Source: Desulfocapsa sulfexigens DSM 10523
Lineage (GTDB): Bacteria > Desulfobacterota > Desulfobulbia > Desulfobulbales > Desulfocapsaceae
Assembly: GCF_000341395.1 (NCBI RefSeq)
Contig: NC_020304.1
Coordinates: 2,430,001 to 2,462,000 of the forward strand
DNA length: 32,000 nucleotides
Direction: 5' to 3'
Shown here piece after piece: positions 10,375-31,450 of this stretch. Made by a program: the position numbers and the translations under genes. A model generated the notes under the pieces. The model was not told the DNA's origin. It searched no databases and saw only the letters and a program-made list of their open reading frames with translations. Each line of letters begins with the position of its first letter. The first letter of the stretch is position 1.

Positions 10375-10469
10375 AACACACAATAGTTTTGCACATGATT
10401 CGAGAGGATGTTTAAGAAGAATCCAACAGAAACATTTGAGTCTGCTTTGTTGAGACCTTGGGGGATGAC

Positions 10470-11606
10470 ATGAGGAAAATTGTTATTTTAGTAACCTGTT
10501 GCTTTCTATTGGGTTTTAGCAATCGTGTCCATGCGCTGGAAATTTTATATAATGATCTGTCTGGTGGGGGCATTAATGCAATTCAGATGAGTGCTTTTAA
10601 TGAAGCCGCATCCTATTGGGAATCAATTTTTGTTGATAATGTCACCGTCCGTGTTGATATTGATATGCAGGCGTTAGGTACAGGAATTATAGGCAGCGCG
10701 CAATCCTATAAGGTTGATACATATTACGGAGATATCCGTAATGCCCTTGCAGGCGATGTTCGTTCAACGGATGATATTCTTGCTACAAGTAATCTTCAAA
10801 CAACTGATCACCTGAATGTTGTCGTTAATGATTTGTATGATGACAATCATGCCTGGATACTTAATTCTTCCAGCACCGTTGAAGTGAATTCTGAACTTTG
10901 GGTGAACAGGGCAAACTTGAAGGCCCTCAGCCTCTTAAATGATGATGGACAGGCTGATGCTTCCGTCTTGATGAGCAGTAACTTTTCTTTTGATTACGAT
11001 CGCAGTGATGGCATAGATAGTGATAAATTGGACTTTGCAGGAGTGATGGTGCATGAAATCGGTCACGCCCTCGGTTTTGTGAGTGGTGTTGATATTATGG
11101 ATTATTACGGATTGGATGGGCCTGGTAATGGCTCATGGGACTGGGGATGGAGTGGCGAAGGTAGCAGCAATACATTAGAAGATGAGGGATATTTCTCTGT
11201 TCTGGATCTGTTTCGATATTCCGATTATATAAACGAATACGAATCAGGTTCTCTGTTTGGGTATTTAGACTGGACCTATGAGTCTGTTGAAGGAGGGTGG
11301 GGAGACTCGTATTTTTCCTTCGATGGAGGAACCACAAATCTGGCACCGTTTTCTACCGGCAGATATAATGGAGACGGTTATCAGGCTAGCCATTGGGAAG
11401 ATGACCTTGGTTTGGGGCGTATGGATCCGACTACGGCATACGGAGAATATTATGATTTCCTGACACCACTTGATCTCCGAGCATTTGATGTTATTGGCTG
11501 GGATTTATCTGTGACCGACCCGGTTCCAGAACCAACAACTTTATTACTTTTTGGGGCTGGACTCTCCGGGCTGATTTATGTCAGAAGCAGGAAAAAGAGA
11601 AAATAA
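10470..11606 (+). CDS. Secreted zinc metalloprotease (HExxH, LGF-type) with a C-terminal PEP-CTERM sorting signal
   Basis: There is a signal peptide (MRKIVILVTCCFLLGFSNRVHA). The zinc site is VMVHEIGHALGF. The C-terminus VPEPTTLLLFGAGLSGLIYVRSRKKRK has the PEP motif, a TM helix and a basic tail. I preferred the ATG at 10470, which has a G-rich SD at 10460-10465, over the TTG at 10458 used by the ORF track. Confidence 0.85.
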   Translation: MRKIVILVTCCFLLGFSNRVHALEILYNDLSGGGINAIQMSAFNEAASYWESIFVDNVTVRVDIDMQALGTGIIGSAQSYKVDTYYGDIRNALAGDVRSTDDILATSNLQTTDHLNVVVNDLYDDNHAWILNSSSTVEVNSELWVNRANLKALSLLNDDGQADASVLMSSNFSFDYDRSDGIDSDKLDFAGVMVHEIGHALGFVSGVDIMDYYGLDGPGNGSWDWGWSGEGSSNTLEDEGYFSVLDLFRYSDYINEYESGSLFGYLDWTYESVEGGWGDSYFSFDGGTTNLAPFSTGRYNGDGYQASHWEDDLGLGRMDPTTAYGEYYDFLTPLDLRAFDVIGWDLSVTDPVPEPTTLLLFGAGLSGLIYVRSRKKRK

Positions 11607-11816: not shown

Positions 11817-12512
11817 CTACTTTTTCTTTTTACGAAATCTCAAGCTTGAAAGACCAACCAGTCCGGTACCGAAGAGAAGCATAGTTGCAGGTTCGGGGAC
11901 GGGGGCATTGCCTACTGCAATATTGTCTATCTCAAAAGCCAAACTGGTACTAGTCAGCACAAAACTATCAAATCGTTCCAGGTCTAAAAAGTTCACATAG
12001 ACATTGGTGGAAGGTGCCGTTTGGTTACCATATTCATCATTCCCGTTTTTGATATCTGAACCAGTAAACGATTGTGTCAATGTGGAACCATTGAAAAATG
12101 AAATAGTATTATATGTATCCACCGACCCCCACCAAAGACCAAAGTAGTCATAGGTCGCACCAAGTTGTGCTGTGATACTTCCTGAACTGCTGGGGTTAGG
12201 CACCGAAAGGTAGTTTGATTGGTCTCTGGAAGTAGTTCCAAATGGAGCAGCATATTGACCACTGGCAGAGCCGTTTACAACATTTGCACTTCCAGTCCAG
12301 GTCCAGGACTGATCTAAAGAACCTGACGGTGCTGTATTGATGGGTGCCTGATTAAATGTTTCTATTAAGAAATTATCAAAGTATGTATAAACTGACGTCT
12401 TATCTGCATCACTATCTTGGCTGAAATAATTAATAGTAGTAGCGTTTACACTAGAGGTTAGACTCAAAAAAAACACCCCTGTTATAGCTGTTAGATAAAT
12501 TTTCTTTGTCAT
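11817..12512 (-). CDS. Exosortase-dependent (PEP-CTERM) surface protein, Npun_F0296-like
   Basis: There is a signal peptide (MTKKIYLTAITGVFFLSLTSSVNA). The central motifs are NYLSVP...YDYFGLWWGSVDTYNTISF...NVYVNF...AFEIDNIAVG. The C-terminus VPEPATMLLFGTGLVGLSSLRFRKKKK is a PEP-CTERM signal. Confidence 0.85.
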   Translation of the reverse strand: MTKKIYLTAITGVFFLSLTSSVNATTINYFSQDSDADKTSVYTYFDNFLIETFNQAPINTAPSGSLDQSWTWTGSANVVNGSASGQYAAPFGTTSRDQSNYLSVPNPSSSGSITAQLGATYDYFGLWWGSVDTYNTISFFNGSTLTQSFTGSDIKNGNDEYGNQTAPSTNVYVNFLDLERFDSFVLTSTSLAFEIDNIAVGNAPVPEPATMLLFGTGLVGLSSLRFRKKKK

Positions 12513-23327: not shown

Positions 23328-24785
23328 ATGAAAGGAAAGTATTCGGGAATAACTATTGGAATGAGTGCAGGCCTTATCGCTGTTGCATCATTGGCAATGG
23401 CAACAGGAAATGGTGTGGACATGGAGCAGTATCCCTATGCACCATCACTGATCCAATGGGAGAAGTCAGCGGCGGAATTTACTGAACCCGAAACCTGCGC
23501 CGAGTGTCATCCTCAGCAATACGAGGAATGGCGTGGCTCCATGCACTCCATTGCTTTTCAGGATCCTATTTATCAGGGAGAGTTGAAACTTGCTATTGAA
23601 GCAGTGGGTCATGATGTTGCAAAACAGTGTGAAGGCTGCCATACCGCAGCAGCTGTAGTTAATGGAGAAGTAAAAGGGGCGGGTTTGAAAGATCTGAGTC
23701 CTCTTGCCATGGCTGGGGTTTCCTGTGATGTCTGCCATTCCATAAAGGGACATACCCACTGGCAGACTCCGACCCATCAACCGGAAAACGGGTCGATGAT
23801 CCTGTCTCCCGGAAAAGAAGTGGATGGCGAAGTCATTCTTACGAAATTCGGTCCCTTTCCTGCCAGTGAAGATTGTGGCGAAGGGTTTCATGAGTGCGTT
23901 GAGTCCCCCCTCCATCTGAAGACGGAGCTCTGTGCCTCCTGCCATCAGGTCACCCATTACGAAAAACATACCCCTCTGGAAATGACGTATACGGAGTGGA
24001 AAAACAGTACCTACGCAGCAAAAGATATTAATTGTCAGGACTGCCATATGGTTGATCTGGAAACGTTCAAACGTTCTGCAGACACCTTCCAGAAACCTGT
24101 TCGAGGTGAATATCATCATTATTTTAACGGCGCTAATTTTCTGATGTATGCACTGACTGAAATGGCGGCAAAAAAGGCTGGAGATGAGGAGTTGGCTGTC
24201 AGCGCCCGCCAAAAATATGAGATGGCAGTAGGTCGGTTACAGGCTGCAGCTGAGTTGGATATCGATCCCATTTATCGGGACGGCAGGCTGGCTGAAGTGA
24301 AGATTCGAGTGAATAACAGACGTGCCGGGCATAACCTTCCAACCTCTCTGACAAATATTCGTCAGATGTGGCTTGAGGTGACAGCCACTGATGCCTCAGG
24401 AAAGGTCGTGATGAGCAGTGGGCATATTGATGAAAAAGGAAAACTTCCAGAAGGAACCAGACTGTTTAATTCAGACGGAATGGGGGAAAATATGCATTTT
24501 GCTCTTGATCCCTGGGAAATAGTCAGTTTTTCCAAGCACGATACAATACCCCCGAAGGGGTACCGCGAGGTGCATTATGGGCTGAGCAGTAACAGCAGTA
24601 CTCCGATCACCTTGAATGTAAAACTTCGTTTTCGTCAGGCAAACCAGAAAGTGGCTGAAAAACTTCTTAGTCATGTTCCCGATGATATGCACCTGGATGT
24701 CATTTACGGAATTAAGGAAGTGCCACCCGTACCCATTATAGATATGGTGGAGAAAACCTTGCAATTCGAGACCAGCGAGAAATAA
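23328..24785 (+). CDS. Periplasmic pentahaem c-type cytochrome with a haem-free C-terminal domain
   Basis: GAAGGAG lies 7 nt before the ATG. The signal peptide ends in SLAMA-TG. There are five CXXCH motifs (CAECH, CEGCH, CDVCH, CASCH, CQDCH), all within residues 57-240. Residues from about 241 to 485 contain no haem motif. Confidence 0.9.
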   Translation: MKGKYSGITIGMSAGLIAVASLAMATGNGVDMEQYPYAPSLIQWEKSAAEFTEPETCAECHPQQYEEWRGSMHSIAFQDPIYQGELKLAIEAVGHDVAKQCEGCHTAAAVVNGEVKGAGLKDLSPLAMAGVSCDVCHSIKGHTHWQTPTHQPENGSMILSPGKEVDGEVILTKFGPFPASEDCGEGFHECVESPLHLKTELCASCHQVTHYEKHTPLEMTYTEWKNSTYAAKDINCQDCHMVDLETFKRSADTFQKPVRGEYHHYFNGANFLMYALTEMAAKKAGDEELAVSARQKYEMAVGRLQAAAELDIDPIYRDGRLAEVKIRVNNRRAGHNLPTSLTNIRQMWLEVTATDASGKVVMSSGHIDEKGKLPEGTRLFNSDGMGENMHFALDPWEIVSFSKHDTIPPKGYREVHYGLSSNSSTPITLNVKLRFRQANQKVAEKLLSHVPDDMHLDVIYGIKEVPPVPIIDMVEKTLQFETSEK

Positions 24786-25039
24786 TTAGTTAATATTACA
24801 GTATCTTATTTGTTTCTAATCAAAAATGCTGGAAATTAATTACCATATACATATATACTACAAAGATATCAACAAGAGGTGGATGATTTCACCATCATCC
24901 AAACTGCCAACCCCAAAAGGAGCTAAACATGCCTGAAGAAGCAGCTGTGGGATGTGCCAGACCTACCGGAGGACCGGTTGGTGAAGAGCCGGACAGCAAA
25001 GTAACAGATGAAAAACAACCAGCAAAAAAGGAGATTTCC

Positions 25040-25648
25040 ATGATTAAAGTTGGTAAAAAAGCCCCGGACTTCACAGCTCCGGGATTCCATAAGGGAGAAT
25101 TTATTAACACCAAGCTTTCAGATTATCTGGGAAAATGGGTTTTACTCTGTTTTTATCCGGGTGATTTTACTTTTGTCTGAGCTACTGAAATTTCAGCGGT
25201 CGCTGAAAAATATCCTGAACTTCAGAAATTAGGTGTTGAAGTCCTCTCCATGTCTATTGACTCCATGTTCACCCACAAGATGTGGGATGAAGATGAGCTG
25301 AGTAAGATGGTGGACGGCGGAGTCCCCTTTCCAATGCTTTCAGATGCGGGCGGTAAAGTTGGGACCGTCTATGGTGTTTATGACGAGGATGCGGGAGTTG
25401 AGGCCCGTGGCCGTTTTATCATTGATCCCGATGGTGTGGTTCAGGGCTATGAGGTTCTCACTCCACCAGTTGGCCGAAATGTCAATGAGACCTTCCGTCA
25501 GGTACAGGCATTTCAACTGGTACGGGAAACCAAGGGCGGAGAAGCTACACCTTCTGGATGGCGACCAGGTAAGGCAACGCTCAAACCGGGAATTGATCTT
25601 GTTGGTAAGGTCTGGAAAGTGTGGAAGACAGAACAGGCCTTTGACTGA
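25040..25648 (+). CDS. prxU: Selenocysteine-containing peroxiredoxin (PrxU type); the TGA at 25178-25180 is read as Sec
   Basis: ORFs 24929-25180 and 25250-25648 are in the same frame and are separated only by a TGA. Read-through gives [45 protein letters not shown]. The stop therefore sits exactly where 2-Cys Prx/AhpC proteins have the peroxidatic Cys (FYPxDFTFVCPTE). Downstream Prx motifs are intact ([28 protein letters not shown]). AAGGAG lies 6 nt before the ATG at 25040, giving 202 aa. Confidence 0.85.
25191..25208 (+). promoter_or_regulatory. Bacterial SECIS-like hairpin directing Sec insertion at TGA 25178
   Basis: TTTCAGC (25191-25197) pairs with GCTGAAA (25202-25208). The 4-nt apical loop is GGTC (25198-25201). 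The stem starts 10-11 nt after the UGA. The E. coli fdhF SECIS also has a GGUC apical loop and an 11-nt spacing requirement (from memory). Confidence 0.6.
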
Positions 25649-25712: not shown

Positions 25713-25871
25713 ATGCAGAAATGGGAATGCCCTTGTGGCTATATATACGATCCTGAAGAAGGGGATTATGAGAATGGGGTTGAGCCTGGTACTCCCTGGG
25801 AAAAACTCCCGGAAGGGTGGGTTTGTCCTAAATGCGGCGCAGAAAAAGAAGATTTCTGGAAAGCTGACTAA
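25713..25871 (+). CDS. Rubredoxin (52 aa) with an atypical C-x-C first knuckle
   Basis: This gene is absent from the ORF track because it is under 60 aa. My translation is [52 protein letters not shown]. It has the rubredoxin hallmarks GYIYDP, PGT.W..LP..W.CP.CGA.K..F. AGAGGTG lies 5 nt upstream of the ATG. Confidence 0.85.
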
Positions 25872-25997: not shown

Positions 25998-28900
25998 TCA
26001 CCACAGGCGTGTAGGTACGACAGCAGCATCTTCAAGTTCAATGGTGTAGAAGATATCTCCGGCATTACTGCTTGTACCGGTTGTGGTCTGGAGATGAATA
26101 TTGCGGTTCAGGCGATAGCGGGTTATAAACTCACTTTCACCCGTTTTCACATCCGTGCCCACTGAAACGGAAAGTTTACTGTTGATCTGCCTGCCAATGG
26201 AGAGTCTTGTCCCCGTTGATGTCTCTGGCGAGGATCCGGTGAGCAGGTAAGATATTACATGACTTTCAGACATCGGCGGGTTGGAAAAGGTGGTCAACCT
26301 GGGTTTTTTCAGTGGACCGATGGCATAGATTCCCGCCACAACATCTCCGACGGTACGTGTTGCTCGAAGATTTATGCCCGGCTGGCTTAACGGGCCACCG
26401 GCAAAAGAAATCACCCCTGTTTCTATATCAAGATCCTGACCATAGGCCCGAAAACTTCCCTGTTCAATATAAAAAGCACCACTGCCGATCATCTGTTCAT
26501 CCGGTTCGGAGAGGATGGTTATTTGACCATTGATGTAGGTGTTAAACCCAAGTCCCACAAAGTGCACCCTGTCTTCAAGACTAATTTTGAGCAGCATACG
26601 AAATGGCGATTTTACCTCATTCTCCTTTTGTTGTTCCTGAAGAATAACCACGTCAGGAGAGGCTGACAGGCTGCCAGGTGGTAATTCCCGCAGTAAAATA
26701 TCGGCTTTGGGAATGCTGGCTACTCCGGTGAGACTCACAAGGCCATTGTTTTTTTCAAAAAGAATGTCAGATGAAAGCAATATAGTAATATCGGGCAGGT
26801 TGACCAGTCTGAAGTTGTTGCCCTTAAGCGTAAGACGTGCAGGCCAACCCTTTTCGCTGTCAAGAGTTGCGTTTCCTTCAAGCTGCATTGATCCCTCGGG
26901 GGACTGGAGGCTTCCTTTAAGGGTTATCTCTTTGTTGTCTGCTGTAAGATCAAAACTGCTGTCCGTGAGATCAAGTCCTATCACAGGAATAAGGACGTGG
27001 CTAATGCTAAGTTGTCCATTTCCATCAATGTCAGGTTCTTCGACGGTTCCGAGAATTGTGAAATTGAGGTCTATGGCTCCACTTAAACCTTTAACATCGG
27101 GAACCAGAGCTTCGACCAGCTCGAAGTGTTTGGCATTAACCAGGAGAGTACCCTGAAGCTTCGCCTTGCCTCCAATATCTTTCTGGAGAAGATTTGGTGA
27201 TTGTATATGACCACTCAGGATATTCGAATTTGCACTGATATGAAAGTCTGTCTCGAGGGCATCGTCAACGATCTTCAGTTTGAGGGCTAATCCTTCATGG
27301 GGAAGCGTCCCTTCCGCTTTCTCAGTTTGATAGGAGATTTCTCCAGGTGTTATTGCCGCAGTTGCATCAACTTTGAGTTTGTCTTTCATGGTGACCGTGG
27401 CCTGGGCAGAAAAGAGACCCGTCAGGCTCTCCAGAGTCTCGGGGAACCATGGGGAAAGCCAGTTAAGCGGAATTTTATTTATTCGTAAGTTTCCACTGGT
27501 ATCTTTGTTTTCAGAATTCCACATTCCCTCAATACAGAGATCTGAATTGTCTCTTCTGAGACAGAGAGGGGCAAGCGAAGCAGCAGTCACAGAGGCGGAA
27601 ATTGTTGTAGGCTCCTGCATCTGCCAATTACCGAGTTCCGTGGAAAGAATCGAAAATGTATCGAGCAGTCCACGCCATTTATCGTCACTGTAGCCTCCGC
27701 TGAGGGTAAGGCTGATATCCGCCATATCATGGTCTGCTTTGATTTGAACTGTGTGCTCTTCTCTGTTGCCTTTTCCCTGTAAATAAAAGGCGTTAATCAG
27801 GCTATATCCCGATTTGAGGCCGCCTGCGTTGAAAGTGAAAGAAAAGGGGTTGGTCCAGCTTAAATCGAGATCCACATCTGCTTGAATAGTATCCAGGGTT
27901 AAATCGGTGTAGGTAATGGAGTTTCCAGAAAGCGCGATGTCAATCTGTGGTTCTGTCATGCTCTTCCGTATCGTCCCGGAGGCTTTGATTTGTCCGGAGC
28001 TGTCTGGCAGGAGGTCTGAAAAATCTGCGATATCTGCTTTCCACTGCAGATTGGATTGTTCACCGAGGTTGCCAGAGGCAGTGATTGTTGCGCTGCCGGA
28101 TGCCAGATTTAAATCCTCAATGCGGATATCATTTGGCTTTACTGTGATACCTCCCGTTCCGGTGATGGGGAGTTCCCGTAACCTGCCATTCAGACTGTCG
28201 ATTATGATATTACTACTAACGCCATCCTCTTCAATAAAACCGTTCGATCCTATCAACCAGTTGAGTCTCCCAGGCCAGTCTGGGTAGTAGATTCCGGGAT
28301 TGATCTGTGTGCCTTTTATTTTCAGGTTCCATTTGATATCTGGTCCCCACGCAACATCACCCTGGAGAACAACTTCGCCCCCCAAAAGGCCAAGAGTGAG
28401 CTGCAGGTTCTTGAGATTGTCTGCGGAACCTTGCGCGTTCAGGTTGACCGTGCTCGCTGGAAGGTCATTGCCGGTAAGCAGGCCATCAAGAACTATATGA
28501 TAGGAATCAATAGTTCCTTTGAGGGTAGCTTCACCCTTGGGAGAGCCATAGTCTGCAGCTCCGTGAACGGGCCATTGCAGCTCCTGCCAGTGCAGCAGTA
28601 AATCGAAGAAGTTTTGTCCAATGTCAGCGATTCCTGTGATATCGAGAATAGCTTCGTTTTCTGGTTGTTTCAGGGTGAATTGTTTGATGTCAAGTGTGAG
28701 ACTTTCAAGATTTACCTGAACGTTTATGTCTGCGTCCCAGTTGACTTCAGCTGCTGTTTTATCACGTATGCTAAGCGTTGAGGCAAGTTCTGTCTGCTTG
28801 AGTGTCCCGCTTGTGGTGAGTTTTCCCGTCACTCTTCCCGGGATATCCGGAGCGAAAGCTGCCGGGATAAGTTCAGCGATCGTGAGCTTTCCATGCCAGC

Positions 28901-29660
28901 CGGGATCAGAAAGGATCTCTTTCACGGTTATATCCAGATTGGCACTGATGTCGCCACTGATTTCTTCCACTATCTGCAATTCCTCCAGATCACCACTAAG
29001 GCTCCCTTTTATTGTTATGGTTGGAATCGCTTGACTTAGGGTCGTAACATCAGTTGTGAGCTGCAGGGGGTAATTGGCGTTGGGATGTATTTTCCCCCGT
29101 ATCTGAATGGATGCCATGTCCGTGGTAACATTAAGTGTCTCGATCTGTATGGTGTCTTCGTCCCATGCCAGTTTAAGGGCTGCCTTGTCAATAGAAAGTG
29201 CTTCCGTGTCCGGGGCGGATAAGAAAGTGAAGTTGTTCAGGGCAAGTTTTTCAATGCTGAGCCTGATGGGCAGGGCGATTTCCGGCAGTGTTCCAGGGCC
29301 ACTTTCTCGCTGGTTTACCTGGCTGTTCTGGGGAGTCGCTTCGTAGGAAACATCGTCTGCTAAAATTTCCAAAATGTGAAGGTGGAGTCTGAACAGGTCT
29401 GTACTCTTCCAGTCCAGTACCAGATGTCTGATCTGAGCAACACCTGTGGAACTGCTGAACCTGATATCAGCAAGTTCCAGGCGATCAAGAATCCTGCCTC
29501 TGGCAGTCCCTATCTGCAGATTTTCATCGAGCAGTTTCTCAGCCTGAACAATAAGAAATTGAGTTCCGCTTTCGGTGCCAAGCAGAAAGAACGCAGCTGT
29601 AAACAGAAGGGACACGAGTCCGAAGAAGGCAATCGCTGCGCCAGGGAGCCATTTTTTCAC
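25998..29660 (-). CDS. tamB: Translocation and assembly module inner-membrane protein TamB (DUF490 family)
   Basis: The protein is very long (1220-1231 aa). It has an N-terminal signal-anchor (KKWLPGAAIAFFGLVSLLFTAAFFLLGTESG). The body is beta-rich and repetitive. The conserved DUF490 C-terminus reads GQITILS...GSFRAYGQDLDIETGVISFAGGPLSQPGINLRATR...LTGSSP...YRLNRNIHLQT. I preferred the GTG at 29660, which forms a GTGA overlap with the tamA stop. The TTG at 29693 from the ORF track is the alternative. Confidence 0.9.
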   Translation of the reverse strand: MKKWLPGAAIAFFGLVSLLFTAAFFLLGTESGTQFLIVQAEKLLDENLQIGTARGRILDRLELADIRFSSSTGVAQIRHLVLDWKSTDLFRLHLHILEILADDVSYEATPQNSQVNQRESGPGTLPEIALPIRLSIEKLALNNFTFLSAPDTEALSIDKAALKLAWDEDTIQIETLNVTTDMASIQIRGKIHPNANYPLQLTTDVTTLSQAIPTITIKGSLSGDLEELQIVEEISGDISANLDITVKEILSDPGWHGKLTIAELIPAAFAPDIPGRVTGKLTTSGTLKQTELASTLSIRDKTAAEVNWDADINVQVNLESLTLDIKQFTLKQPENEAILDITGIADIGQNFFDLLLHWQELQWPVHGAADYGSPKGEATLKGTIDSYHIVLDGLLTGNDLPASTVNLNAQGSADNLKNLQLTLGLLGGEVVLQGDVAWGPDIKWNLKIKGTQINPGIYYPDWPGRLNWLIGSNGFIEEDGVSSNIIIDSLNGRLRELPITGTGGITVKPNDIRIEDLNLASGSATITASGNLGEQSNLQWKADIADFSDLLPDSSGQIKASGTIRKSMTEPQIDIALSGNSITYTDLTLDTIQADVDLDLSWTNPFSFTFNAGGLKSGYSLINAFYLQGKGNREEHTVQIKADHDMADISLTLSGGYSDDKWRGLLDTFSILSTELGNWQMQEPTTISASVTAASLAPLCLRRDNSDLCIEGMWNSENKDTSGNLRINKIPLNWLSPWFPETLESLTGLFSAQATVTMKDKLKVDATAAITPGEISYQTEKAEGTLPHEGLALKLKIVDDALETDFHISANSNILSGHIQSPNLLQKDIGGKAKLQGTLLVNAKHFELVEALVPDVKGLSGAIDLNFTILGTVEEPDIDGNGQLSISHVLIPVIGLDLTDSSFDLTADNKEITLKGSLQSPEGSMQLEGNATLDSEKGWPARLTLKGNNFRLVNLPDITILLSSDILFEKNNGLVSLTGVASIPKADILLRELPPGSLSASPDVVILQEQQKENEVKSPFRMLLKISLEDRVHFVGLGFNTYINGQITILSEPDEQMIGSGAFYIEQGSFRAYGQDLDIETGVISFAGGPLSQPGINLRATRTVGDVVAGIYAIGPLKKPRLTTFSNPPMSESHVISYLLTGSSPETSTGTRLSIGRQINSKLSVSVGTDVKTGESEFITRYRLNRNIHLQTTTGTSSNAGDIFYTIELEDAAVVPTRLW

Positions 29661-31450
29661 AATGTTGCTCCAAAACCAATATGAAATCGCCAATCATTTA
29701 ATTCAGGACTTTCACTTACCGGATATGCAATATCGATACGCAGCGAACCAAAGGGTGCCAGCCAGCGCAACCCGACCCCTGCACCGACATATGCGTCCCC
29801 AAGTTTGTCATTGTAAGCATTTCCTGCATCTACAAATCCTGCTAATACCCAGGACTGGGAGACTCGATGATCATACTCCAGGCTCCCTGTTACTACATTT
29901 TTACCACCGACGCTGACACCATTAGCATTCTTCGGCCCCAGTGATTCGTATGAATATCCACGGACAGAAGTGTCTCCACCGGCAAAAAACCTGAGGGTGG
30001 CCGGGTACATGTCGAAGTCTTCAACCCAGGTTGTGCCTATCTCAATTTGTGTGTCGATACGGCCATTTTTGCCTAATCCCACCATGTACCTTCCCTTCAT
30101 GTGAAGACGGGCATAGGATGTGTCGGAAAGAAGTGCTTCTGAGGCACCGCGAAGATCTATAAACAGATAGTCGCCGTATTGAGGGAAAATAGATTCTTCT
30201 GTATCTGAAAAACGAAAGGTTCCACCAAGACTGTAGAGAGCAGTGTTTTCGTCGGGCTCACCTTCAACACTGAACTGTTCGCTTGAAGCGAGGACGAAGC
30301 CTTTGTAAAGAAGTGTGTCGGCAAGGTTTCTTCGTACGAATGCTGTTTCCATTTCAAGGGTGGCACTGCTTGTGTCGGGAGTCTGGTCAAATTCATAACT
30401 GGCTGTCGATACCCATCTGTCAGTGAGAGGTTTTACAACCGGGATATTATACTGAGCCCGAATGATGCTTTCTGTCCAGGCAAGTTTGACAGAAAGCTCC
30501 GAGTGGTGGCCGTAACGATTGAGTAATCTGTCGTCCCAGCGTGCGGATCCACGAATTCCTGTGTCGGAATCATAGCCGACCCCAAATGTAAATTTATGTG
30601 GGGCAATCGGTTTCATAATCACAGTCAAAGGTAATTGTTGATCCAGTGATTCTTCGTAACGTGGGGTAATGGTTACTTCTCTGGCGTAATTACTTGCAAT
30701 CAGATTCTGCTGAAATTCCAGCAGGGCCTCATAGGAATAGGGGGTTCCCTTTTCCATGGTGATGTATTTTGTGAGCAGGTCTGGATTAAGAAAATCCTGC
30801 AGAAAAGTGATATTTCCAAAGTAATACAGAGGACCGGTATCCATGTGAAGAGTTAATTTTGCAGTGTTGCTATCAAGATCAACCAGCCATTCACTTGTTA
30901 TGAATCTTGCCTTTGGATATCCATTGGAAAAGGCTATGTTCATAAAAGTATTCTTTGCTGCTTCATACTCTGCATGGATCAGGGTTTTCCCTGCCTTTCT
31001 AAGGTAATCCTTTATGCTCTGCTGGAGTGCCGGATGGTTCATTCCTTCACCAAACCATTGTACGTCTCTACCTGTTATGACAACAGGTTCTCCCTTGTCT
31101 ACTCTGTAGGTGGCGAACCATTGACCATCTTCTTCGATCAACGCCGAGCGAATCTCTGGAATATAATAGCCAAAGGGTTGCAGGGCTTCACGAATTTCCT
31201 GCGGCGCCTGCTGGTGTAGCTTCTTGATCCAACGCGGGGTGAGATCCTCGTCATTTTTCATTTTGTTGATATCGAGAAAAAGGAGGACATTTTGCCGAAA
31301 GGGGGCTTCGAGTCCGGTAAGGTCTACACTAAGAGGTGTTGCAGCCATGGCCGGAAAGGAAAACAGGATAAGGAGCAGGCTGAATGCAAGTTGGATGCTT
31401 CGTAAAACATACTGGCTGGGAATGCTTGGGAGGAACATAAAAATGTTCAT
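29657..31450 (-). CDS. tamA: Outer-membrane protein assembly factor TamA (Omp85/BamA family: POTRA domains plus a 16-stranded barrel)
   Basis: The signal peptide ends in FPAMA-AT. A POTRA-like N-terminal region follows. The Omp85 barrel motifs are FFAGGDTSVRGYSYESLGP...GGKNVVTGSLEY...FVDAGNAY...GAGVGLRWLAPFGSLRIDIAYP...RFHIGFGATL. The gene lies directly upstream of tamB. Confidence 0.9.
   Translation of the reverse strand: MNIFMFLPSIPSQYVLRSIQLAFSLLLILFSFPAMAATPLSVDLTGLEAPFRQNVLLFLDINKMKNDEDLTPRWIKKLHQQAPQEIREALQPFGYYIPEIRSALIEEDGQWFATYRVDKGEPVVITGRDVQWFGEGMNHPALQQSIKDYLRKAGKTLIHAEYEAAKNTFMNIAFSNGYPKARFITSEWLVDLDSNTAKLTLHMDTGPLYYFGNITFLQDFLNPDLLTKYITMEKGTPYSYEALLEFQQNLIASNYAREVTITPRYEESLDQQLPLTVIMKPIAPHKFTFGVGYDSDTGIRGSARWDDRLLNRYGHHSELSVKLAWTESIIRAQYNIPVVKPLTDRWVSTASYEFDQTPDTSSATLEMETAFVRRNLADTLLYKGFVLASSEQFSVEGEPDENTALYSLGGTFRFSDTEESIFPQYGDYLFIDLRGASEALLSDTSYARLHMKGRYMVGLGKNGRIDTQIEIGTTWVEDFDMYPATLRFFAGGDTSVRGYSYESLGPKNANGVSVGGKNVVTGSLEYDHRVSQSWVLAGFVDAGNAYNDKLGDAYVGAGVGLRWLAPFGSLRIDIAYPVSESPELNDWRFHIGFGATL

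Follow-up and report, generated by a model that had tools for sequence, protein, structure and literature searches.

A prxU selenoprotein gene with a covariation-supported SECIS hairpin and two candidate translation starts in Desulfocapsa sulfexigens

The stretch of DNA considered here, referred to below as the window, comprises 32,000 nucleotides (nt) of Desulfocapsa sulfexigens DSM 10523 (contig NC_020304.1, positions 2,430,001 to 2,462,000 of the forward strand), and coordinates are given as positions within it. The window contains a gene, prxU, whose reading frame is interrupted by a TGA codon. This locus is very probably a genuine selenoprotein gene that encodes a peroxiredoxin (Prx) of the Prx1/AhpC fold with selenocysteine (Sec) in place of the peroxidatic Cys. 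Direct observation of the sequences reveals the position and conservation of the TGA, covariation in the hairpin that follows it, membership of the encoded protein in the PrxU family, selection on an N-terminal tail, and a conserved Shine-Dalgarno (SD) sequence inside the coding region.

The prxU reading frame has been examined by translation and by comparison with protein families of known structure. Translation of 25040-25648 yields a complete peroxiredoxin with one internal stop, which begins MIKVGKK and ends AFD*. The internal stop is a TGA in frame with an AhpC/TSA peroxiredoxin frame that runs unbroken through 25648. Mechanical calling of open reading frames (ORFs) splits the gene into two pieces (24929-25180 and 25250-25648), just as described in an earlier note made from the letters of this DNA. 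When the stop is replaced, the protein matches the Pfam families AhpC-TSA (1.3e-38), Redoxin, and 1-cysPrx_C, and it is matched by solved Prx1/AhpC structures at E values of 1e-41 to 1.5e-49 (best 1.5e-49). In the structure alignments the TGA occupies the column of the peroxidatic Cys, the structures reading DFTFVCPTE and the window DFTFV*ATE, in agreement with the earlier proposal of Sec at the peroxidatic position. The active-site motif of such proteins is written PxxxTxxU in PMC13188914. Some details of the earlier note have to be revised. The motif was given there as VCPTE, whereas the window reads VUATE, and a Sec peptide of 16 residues was named for detection, whereas a tryptic Sec peptide of 25 residues is expected. 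The gene was placed at 25040-25648, of which the end is right, but 25040 is an internal start in an ORF that begins at 24929.

Relatives of the gene were gathered from both proteins and genomes. A search at the protein level yielded relatives in the thousands, the nearest of which are mostly about 237-240 amino acids long, and the Cys orthologue P0104 served as lead sequence of the protein alignment. A genome scan with one genome per species returned at least 594 relatives, and detailed comparisons were made on the best 80, where tblastn matches cover residues 1-239 in nearly all loci. The best 80 belong mainly to the Thermodesulfobacteriota (Desulfocapsa, Desulfobulbaceae, Desulfobacterales, Syntrophales), and others are from metagenome-assembled genomes labelled Nitrospirota, Spirochaetota, Caldithrix, KSB1, Cloacimonadota, Acidobacteria, and Chloroflexi. 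All 80 aligned relatives carry TGA as the codon of the peroxidatic position, and so does every locus among the best 80 where the motif could be located.

The region downstream of the TGA has been probed by covariation. Counted from the U of the UGA, nt 14-31 form a hairpin that is separated from the UGA by a 10-nt spacer, and this 18-mer, the putative Sec insertion sequence (SECIS), folds at -7.3 kcal/mol. For the covariation analysis, 45 nt from the TGA were aligned in 80 distinct sequences and compared with 500 shuffles, and partner columns that had been slid out of register served as control. Cells are paired in 99.5% of cases across the 80 sequences, compared with 39-67% when the partner columns are slid, and compensatory changes in which both sides are altered occur in four of the eight pairs (99 cells). 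The observed covariation score was reached by none of the 500 shuffles. The exchanges are readily seen in individual pairs, as pair 18-27 is AU in 36 sequences, GC in 35, UA in 7, CG in 1, and GU in 1, and pair 15-30 is UA in 60, CG in 15, AU in 4, and UG in 1. Three of the covarying pairs (these two and 21-24) join third-codon positions (Ile/Val-Glu, Ser-Ala, and Ala-Val) and are synonymous; consequently, constraint on the protein sequence cannot account for the covariation. In the relative L064, two amino acids are altered (SAVAE to SSVGE) and the pairing is retained.

The apical loop of the hairpin is also conserved. Both G22 and U23 are invariant in the 80 aligned sequences, and the loops found among 83 TGA sequences are GGUC (45), AGUU (37), and GGUU (1). 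Loop positions 1 and 4 (nt 21 and 24) are GC in 43 sequences, AU in 36, and GU in 1, and this covariation as a pair suggests that the G-U is extruded from a closed stem. Furthermore, RNAalifold applied from -15 to +75 returned the SECIS hairpin as the sole consensus structure, with no other conserved structure in that interval. Orthologues with TGC (Cys) in place of TGA, which include P0020, P0048, P0104, and P0114, provide a control. In a set of four such relatives the hairpin is lost in two, is down to 4 base pairs (bp) in one, and is intact with a GAUC loop in one; this is a small sample (n = 4), and the direction of hairpin loss is as expected.

Two kinds of variant locus were encountered in this comparison. 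The TGC orthologue at L089 (2723-2767) keeps a full 7-bp hairpin with the loop GAUC rather than GGUC or AGUU, as though Sec had recently been converted to Cys and the SECIS had persisted as a relic. Two independent assemblies have GGA (Gly) at the catalytic codon together with an intact SECIS hairpin (L006, 5250-5252; L007, 4492-4494), and this variant probably represents a copy that was inactivated or put to another use not long ago.

The protein was also scored against family models. The NCBIfam equivalog model NF040737 (peroxi_PrxU) gives 421.9 bits, where 270 is the cutoff, with residues 7-235 aligned to positions 2-232 of the 233 in the profile, while the AhpC equivalog model TIGR03137 remains below its cutoff (190.8 versus 272). 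The founding prxU was found by tblastn of plasmid records on an 809-kb megaplasmid of Peptoclostridium (Eubacterium) acidaminophilum DSM 3953, where the gene is annotated 'prxU, thioredoxin-dependent peroxiredoxin' (WP_084481301.1), and its product shares 67.8% identity with the window protein across all 239 residues (1-239). The PrxU class named in the earlier note is thus upheld, and in the alignment with PrxU and Cys orthologues that it proposed, P. acidaminophilum shares the TGA and the hairpin and the Cys orthologues carry TGC. The window gene is an orthologue of prxU and an ordinary member of a known, curated, and widespread selenoprotein family that belongs to the selenoproteome of anaerobes. 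Recent reviews count Prx (TxxU) as one of the prokaryotic selenoproteins verified by experiment, with reference to Söhling et al. 2001 (PMC13188914; PMC9312934), and PrxU genes have been reported in Desulfotignum and Desulfobacterium (PMC4046663). The earlier note also expected automatic annotators to miscall the gene. This holds for other callers, which give W at the Sec column, but the NCBI pipeline includes a model made for this family, and the RefSeq annotation of prxU is complete (WP_084481301.1).

The N-terminal region of the gene is longer than first described. The ORF is open upstream as far as the ATG at 24929, which adds a 37-residue extension to the protein that begins at 25040. An SD core lies 3-10 nt (in one case 13 nt) before the equivalent upstream ATG in 76 of the 80 relatives. 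Within the first 19 residues, nearly all codons of a 12-residue motif in the tail have a third-position entropy of about 1.0-2.0 bits, with positions 1 and 2 near 0 (84 distinct sequences), and such variable third positions beside near-fixed first and second positions indicate a translated peptide under protein-level selection. Within this motif, Cys9 is invariant in 93 aligned proteins. The tail is followed by a linker of about 20 residues that is variable, acidic, and Lys-rich. In an AlphaFold 2 (AF2) monomer model the core is confident, residues 1-19 have a predicted local distance difference test (pLDDT) score of about 65, and the linker (residues 20-35) falls below 50 and is predicted to be disordered.

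A second set of signals surrounds the ATG at 25040. The sequence AAGGAGG is conserved at -15 to -9 of this internal ATG (83 distinct sequences), and SD matches of 6 nt or more precede it in 89% of sequences, compared with 1.6% at control positions in the same frame. Within the internal SD, Glu is encoded by GAG in 81 of 83 sequences, compared with 37% GAG in the gene body, and the internal SD persists in the Cys forms, even with differing amino acids. In the relative L091, which has no extension, the site equivalent to 25040 is an ordinary gene start. The PrxU described in 2001 is reportedly a 22-kDa protein of 203 amino acids with Sec at position 47, and the P. acidaminophilum ORF fits such a model if it is started at Met38. 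The RefSeq model of 240 amino acids and the published model of 203 amino acids represent two different starts.

The most economical reading of these signals is that the gene probably has two in-frame starts, at 24929 and 25040, that would give rise to a tailed isoform of 239 amino acids and a tail-less isoform of 202 amino acids. Production of a single isoform is also a serious prospect, if one that falls somewhat short of an even chance, and it could take either of two forms. If only the short form were made and the upstream region were a leader, then the 203-residue size reported for the historical PrxU, the extreme conservation of the internal SD, and the starts of extension-less relatives at the equivalent of 25040 would all be accommodated, but not the amino-acid selection on residues 1-19 or the upstream SD in most relatives, which argue that the long form is made. 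If only the long form were made and the internal SD were a relic or a pause site, this would agree with the NCBIfam model and RefSeq, both of which give the long form, and with the replacement of the internal ATG by GTG or ATT in two relatives; in that case the near-fixed GAG at a synonymous site in the internal SD, which argues for use of the internal start, would not be accounted for. Under each single-isoform view, one of these signals stays unexplained, and the use of both starts is therefore preferred.

Recoding of the UGA in prxU is most likely to proceed as in E. coli. By analogy with that system, the hairpin 10 nt past UGA-84 would present its apical G22-U23 to SelB carrying Sec-tRNA(Sec), and UGA-84 would then be read as Sec rather than as a stop, with a normal UGA stop, not followed by a hairpin, lying 468 nt beyond it. 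The prxU mRNA would then contain UGA in two senses, Sec at codon 84 (followed by the hairpin) and termination at codon 240 (no hairpin). Several results weigh against the assignment of a Sec codon and its SECIS. No selA, selB, selC, selD, or tRNA gene is present in the 32-kb window, where none of the annotated ORFs has a Sel-family domain, and the decoding machinery is inferred. The RNA folding that the earlier note proposed as a check does recover the hairpin, but the single-sequence fold is thermodynamically unexceptional (z = -0.87, 63-nt fold); since this z-score is not significant, it was dropped as evidence and covariation was used instead. Rfam searches returned no SECIS family, either for the whole window at gathering thresholds or for 25150-25260 at E <= 10, where only chance matches appeared. 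Differences from the SECIS of E. coli fdhF also count here. In fdhF, a 17-nt upper stem-loop (nt 15-31) begins 11 nt from the UGA and carries G23/U24 in its loop, and loop G23 and the bulged U17 contact SelB (PMC8659212). The window and its relatives have a perfect 7-bp stem without the bulged U17, and the window hairpin is 1 nt closer to the UGA (10 versus 11 nt). Because the bulged U17 is specific to recognition by E. coli SelB, its absence counts against identity with the fdhF element and not against SECIS function.

Two other explanations of the in-frame TGA have to be considered. The UGA might be decoded as one of the standard amino acids (Trp, Gly, or Cys) through a reassigned code or near-cognate read-through, with no Sec involved. 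This idea draws on the public databases, as most homologue entries (P0001-P0120) have W (Trp) at the Sec column, as would be found in a code-4 organism. The DNA behind these entries, however, is TGA (for example L001 384-386 and L002 1803-1805), so the W is a gene-caller artefact of a code that reads TGA as Trp. TGA terminates 6 of the 23 family-supported genes in the window, prxU among them, and its use as an ordinary stop rules out a reassigned genetic code. Moreover, an enzyme with Trp or Gly as its peroxidatic residue would have no catalytic activity, the SelB-type hairpin with its invariant GU loop is conserved, and selenium was shown in the founding PrxU by Söhling et al. 2001, as cited in PMC13188914. 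Decoding as an ordinary amino acid is consequently very improbable. Equally hard to sustain is a pseudogene or sequencing error, in which a TGC or TGT Cys codon has been mutated or misread to leave a dead or truncated peroxiredoxin, for although in the window alone the gene is interrupted midway by a stop codon and single-base variants at the catalytic codon occur naturally (the GGA of L006 and L007), the TGA is shared by aligned relatives of many phyla with the downstream frame intact and conserved, and the hairpin is held by compensatory synonymous-site substitutions that a dead gene would not keep. A scan of the window for in-frame TGA codons found no other convincing split gene.

Recoding of UGA-84 as Sec raises the matter of how the oxidized enzyme would be recycled. 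By inference from Prx chemistry, the selenolate in the pocket formed by PxxxTxxU and Arg160 would attack the hydroperoxide to form a selenenic acid. No Cys is found in the region of the C-terminal resolving Cys among 93 family members, and oxidized Sec therefore needs either another protein thiol or direct reduction by a thioredoxin-type reductant. In the first case a selenenylsulfide would form and then be reduced by a thioredoxin-type reductant; in the second the reductant would resolve Sec directly. The only invariant cysteines besides the catalytic position are Cys9 and Cys74 (LLCFYPGDF; Cys75 in alignment A3). An 'Nt' resolving Cys is one of five recognised locations in peroxiredoxins and forms intersubunit bonds (Poole and Nelson 2016, PMC4749874). 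By analogy, Cys9 on its flexible tail is the best internal resolving candidate, albeit a tentative one, and Cys74 is an alternative candidate. The more elaborate proposal, in which Cys9 would form an intersubunit selenenylsulfide with Sec84 and mixed oligomers of tailed and tail-less subunits, supplied by a dual-start architecture of the family that is captured by neither of the historical annotations, would set the recycling of oxidized selenium, is possible but doubtful. A resolving role for Cys9 is opposed by the Cys-type relative P0114/L091, which lacks the extension altogether, and by the AF2 model, where the low score of the tail (about 65) comes from a monomer that cannot display intersubunit contacts. 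In addition, the PrxU purified from E. acidaminophilum is said to have been the short, 22-kDa form of 203 amino acids. Features of the locus are collected in Table 1.

Table 1. Positions of sequence features at the prxU locus, given as window coordinates.
Feature	Position	Strand	Remarks
SD AAAGGAG, long-form start	24916..24922	+	Read from sequence; SD core also in relatives
prxU, full ORF	24929..25648	+	239 codons plus stop; Sec = codon 84
N-terminal tail motif, 12 residues	24950..24985	+	Invariant Cys9 codon at 24953-24955
Internal SD AAGGAG	25028..25033	+	Inside coding sequence; conserved in relatives
Internal ATG (Met38), candidate short-form start, 202 amino acids	25040..25042	+	ATG in 81/83 relatives, GTG in 1, ATT in 1
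Thr81 codon of PxxxTxxU active-site motif	25169..25171	+	Invariant column, alignment A1
UGA, very probably decoded as Sec	25178..25180	+	U84 in long form, U47 in short form; peroxidatic-Cys column
SECIS hairpin UUUCAGC-GGUC-GCUGAAA	25191..25208	+	7-bp stem; apical GGUC loop 25198-25201; G22/U23 invariant
Catalytic Arg160 codon (ARGRFIID)	25406..25408	+	Aligns with conserved Arg of Prx1 structures; invariant in A1
prxU own stop, UGA without a hairpin 3' of it	25646..25648	+	Same end point in homologues

The genes around prxU were compared for a conserved neighbourhood that could point to its reductant. A rubredoxin gene (25713-25871) lies on the same strand 64 nt downstream of prxU, with no terminator detected between the two. 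A rubredoxin gene likewise accompanies prxU at 6 of about 83 loci, which belong to different lineages (L008, the closest relative, and L047, L062, L063, L069, and L077), and no neighbouring gene family is shared by more than about 10 of the 83 loci. The adjacency of prxU and rubredoxin fits a loose clustering of oxidative-stress genes. Upstream of the prxU SD, and downstream of a weak promoter-like site, a perfect 8-6-8 palindrome, TGGATGAT-TTCACC-ATCATCCA, is located at 24880-24901; L008 and L009, the closest relatives, have similar palindromes of the type GATGA...TCATC in the equivalent position. The palindrome at 24880-24901 could be an operator or a hairpin in the 5' untranslated region. 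Just upstream of prxU is a gene for a multihaem c-type cytochrome (23328-24785) that has weak, sub-threshold similarity to the NCBIfam '(seleno)protein' cytochrome families (ExtKL and UshA-like PCGU); no in-frame TGA was found in it. Elsewhere in the window are two divergently oriented genes for PEP-CTERM-anchored proteins with no other recognisable domain (10458-11606 and 11817-12512) and TamA/TamB genes (25998-31450). The PEP-CTERM proteins and TamA/TamB fit a Gram-negative sediment bacterium.

For annotation, the locus needs one coding sequence, 24929-25648, with a translation exception at 25178-25180, and the presence of prxU implies that the host organism decodes Sec. Nothing new is learned about recoding as such, as PrxU has been known since 2001, NCBI maintains a curated model of it, and its relatives in genome assemblies number in the hundreds. 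Modest by-products are a clean PrxU SECIS model supported by covariation and the recognition that many database entries wrongly give Trp at the Sec position; Trp in place of Sec is a problem of database hygiene for selenoproteins. Only the family-wide two-start architecture and the tail with its invariant N-terminal Cys are mildly new. The tail and the two starts provide a testable idea for how a Sec-peroxiredoxin without a C-terminal resolving Cys might be recycled.

Comparison of the window gene with known systems begins with the SECIS of E. coli fdhF. In both cases a hairpin follows immediately 3' of the UGA and has a GGUC apical loop, and the key G and U are at nearly equal distances from the UGA (nt 22/23 in the window and 23/24 in fdhF). 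The fdhF-like SECIS of the earlier note, with 7 bp, a GGUC loop, and a 10-nt spacer, is therefore confirmed, the window hairpin extending over nt 14-31 and that of fdhF over nt 15-31. Beyond the differences weighed above, no conserved lower stem was found for the prxU hairpin, and the first and fourth positions of its loop covary in the manner of a base pair, unlike the arrangement in fdhF.

Typical 2-Cys peroxiredoxins, such as human PRDX2 (1QMV) and S. typhimurium AhpC (4MA9), have the same fold, PxxxTxx(C/U) motif, and catalytic Arg as the window protein. In contrast to these enzymes, the window protein has Sec at the peroxidatic position and an N-terminal tail that bears a Cys, and it reads GEATPSGW where Prx1 proteins read GEVCPAGW, so that the C-terminal resolving Cys (VCP motif) is absent. 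A closer parallel in this respect is offered by the 'Nt' peroxiredoxins, as a conserved Cys at the extreme N-terminus is common to both, and the window protein has no C-terminal resolving Cys. The putative bond between Cys9 and Sec84 would nonetheless be a selenenylsulfide rather than a disulfide, and the tail would possibly be carried by some subunits only, if both starts are used.

The nearest known system is the PrxU of P. acidaminophilum. The two differ in the hairpin, which is UUUCAGC-AGUU-GCUGAAA in P. acidaminophilum, its loop AGUU standing against GGUC in the window (both types are common in the family), and in the host, which is clostridial in the one case and a Desulfobulbales-like Gram-negative bacterium in the other. 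The tail motif of P. acidaminophilum (GCARPKSQ) is shorter than the 12-residue motif of the window, and the genomic neighbours are unrelated. Common to both genes are a UGA at codon 84 within a shared 13-residue motif, a 7-bp hairpin 10 nt downstream of it, a C-terminus that lacks the resolving Cys, an N-terminal GCARP motif, and an internal SD with its ATG.

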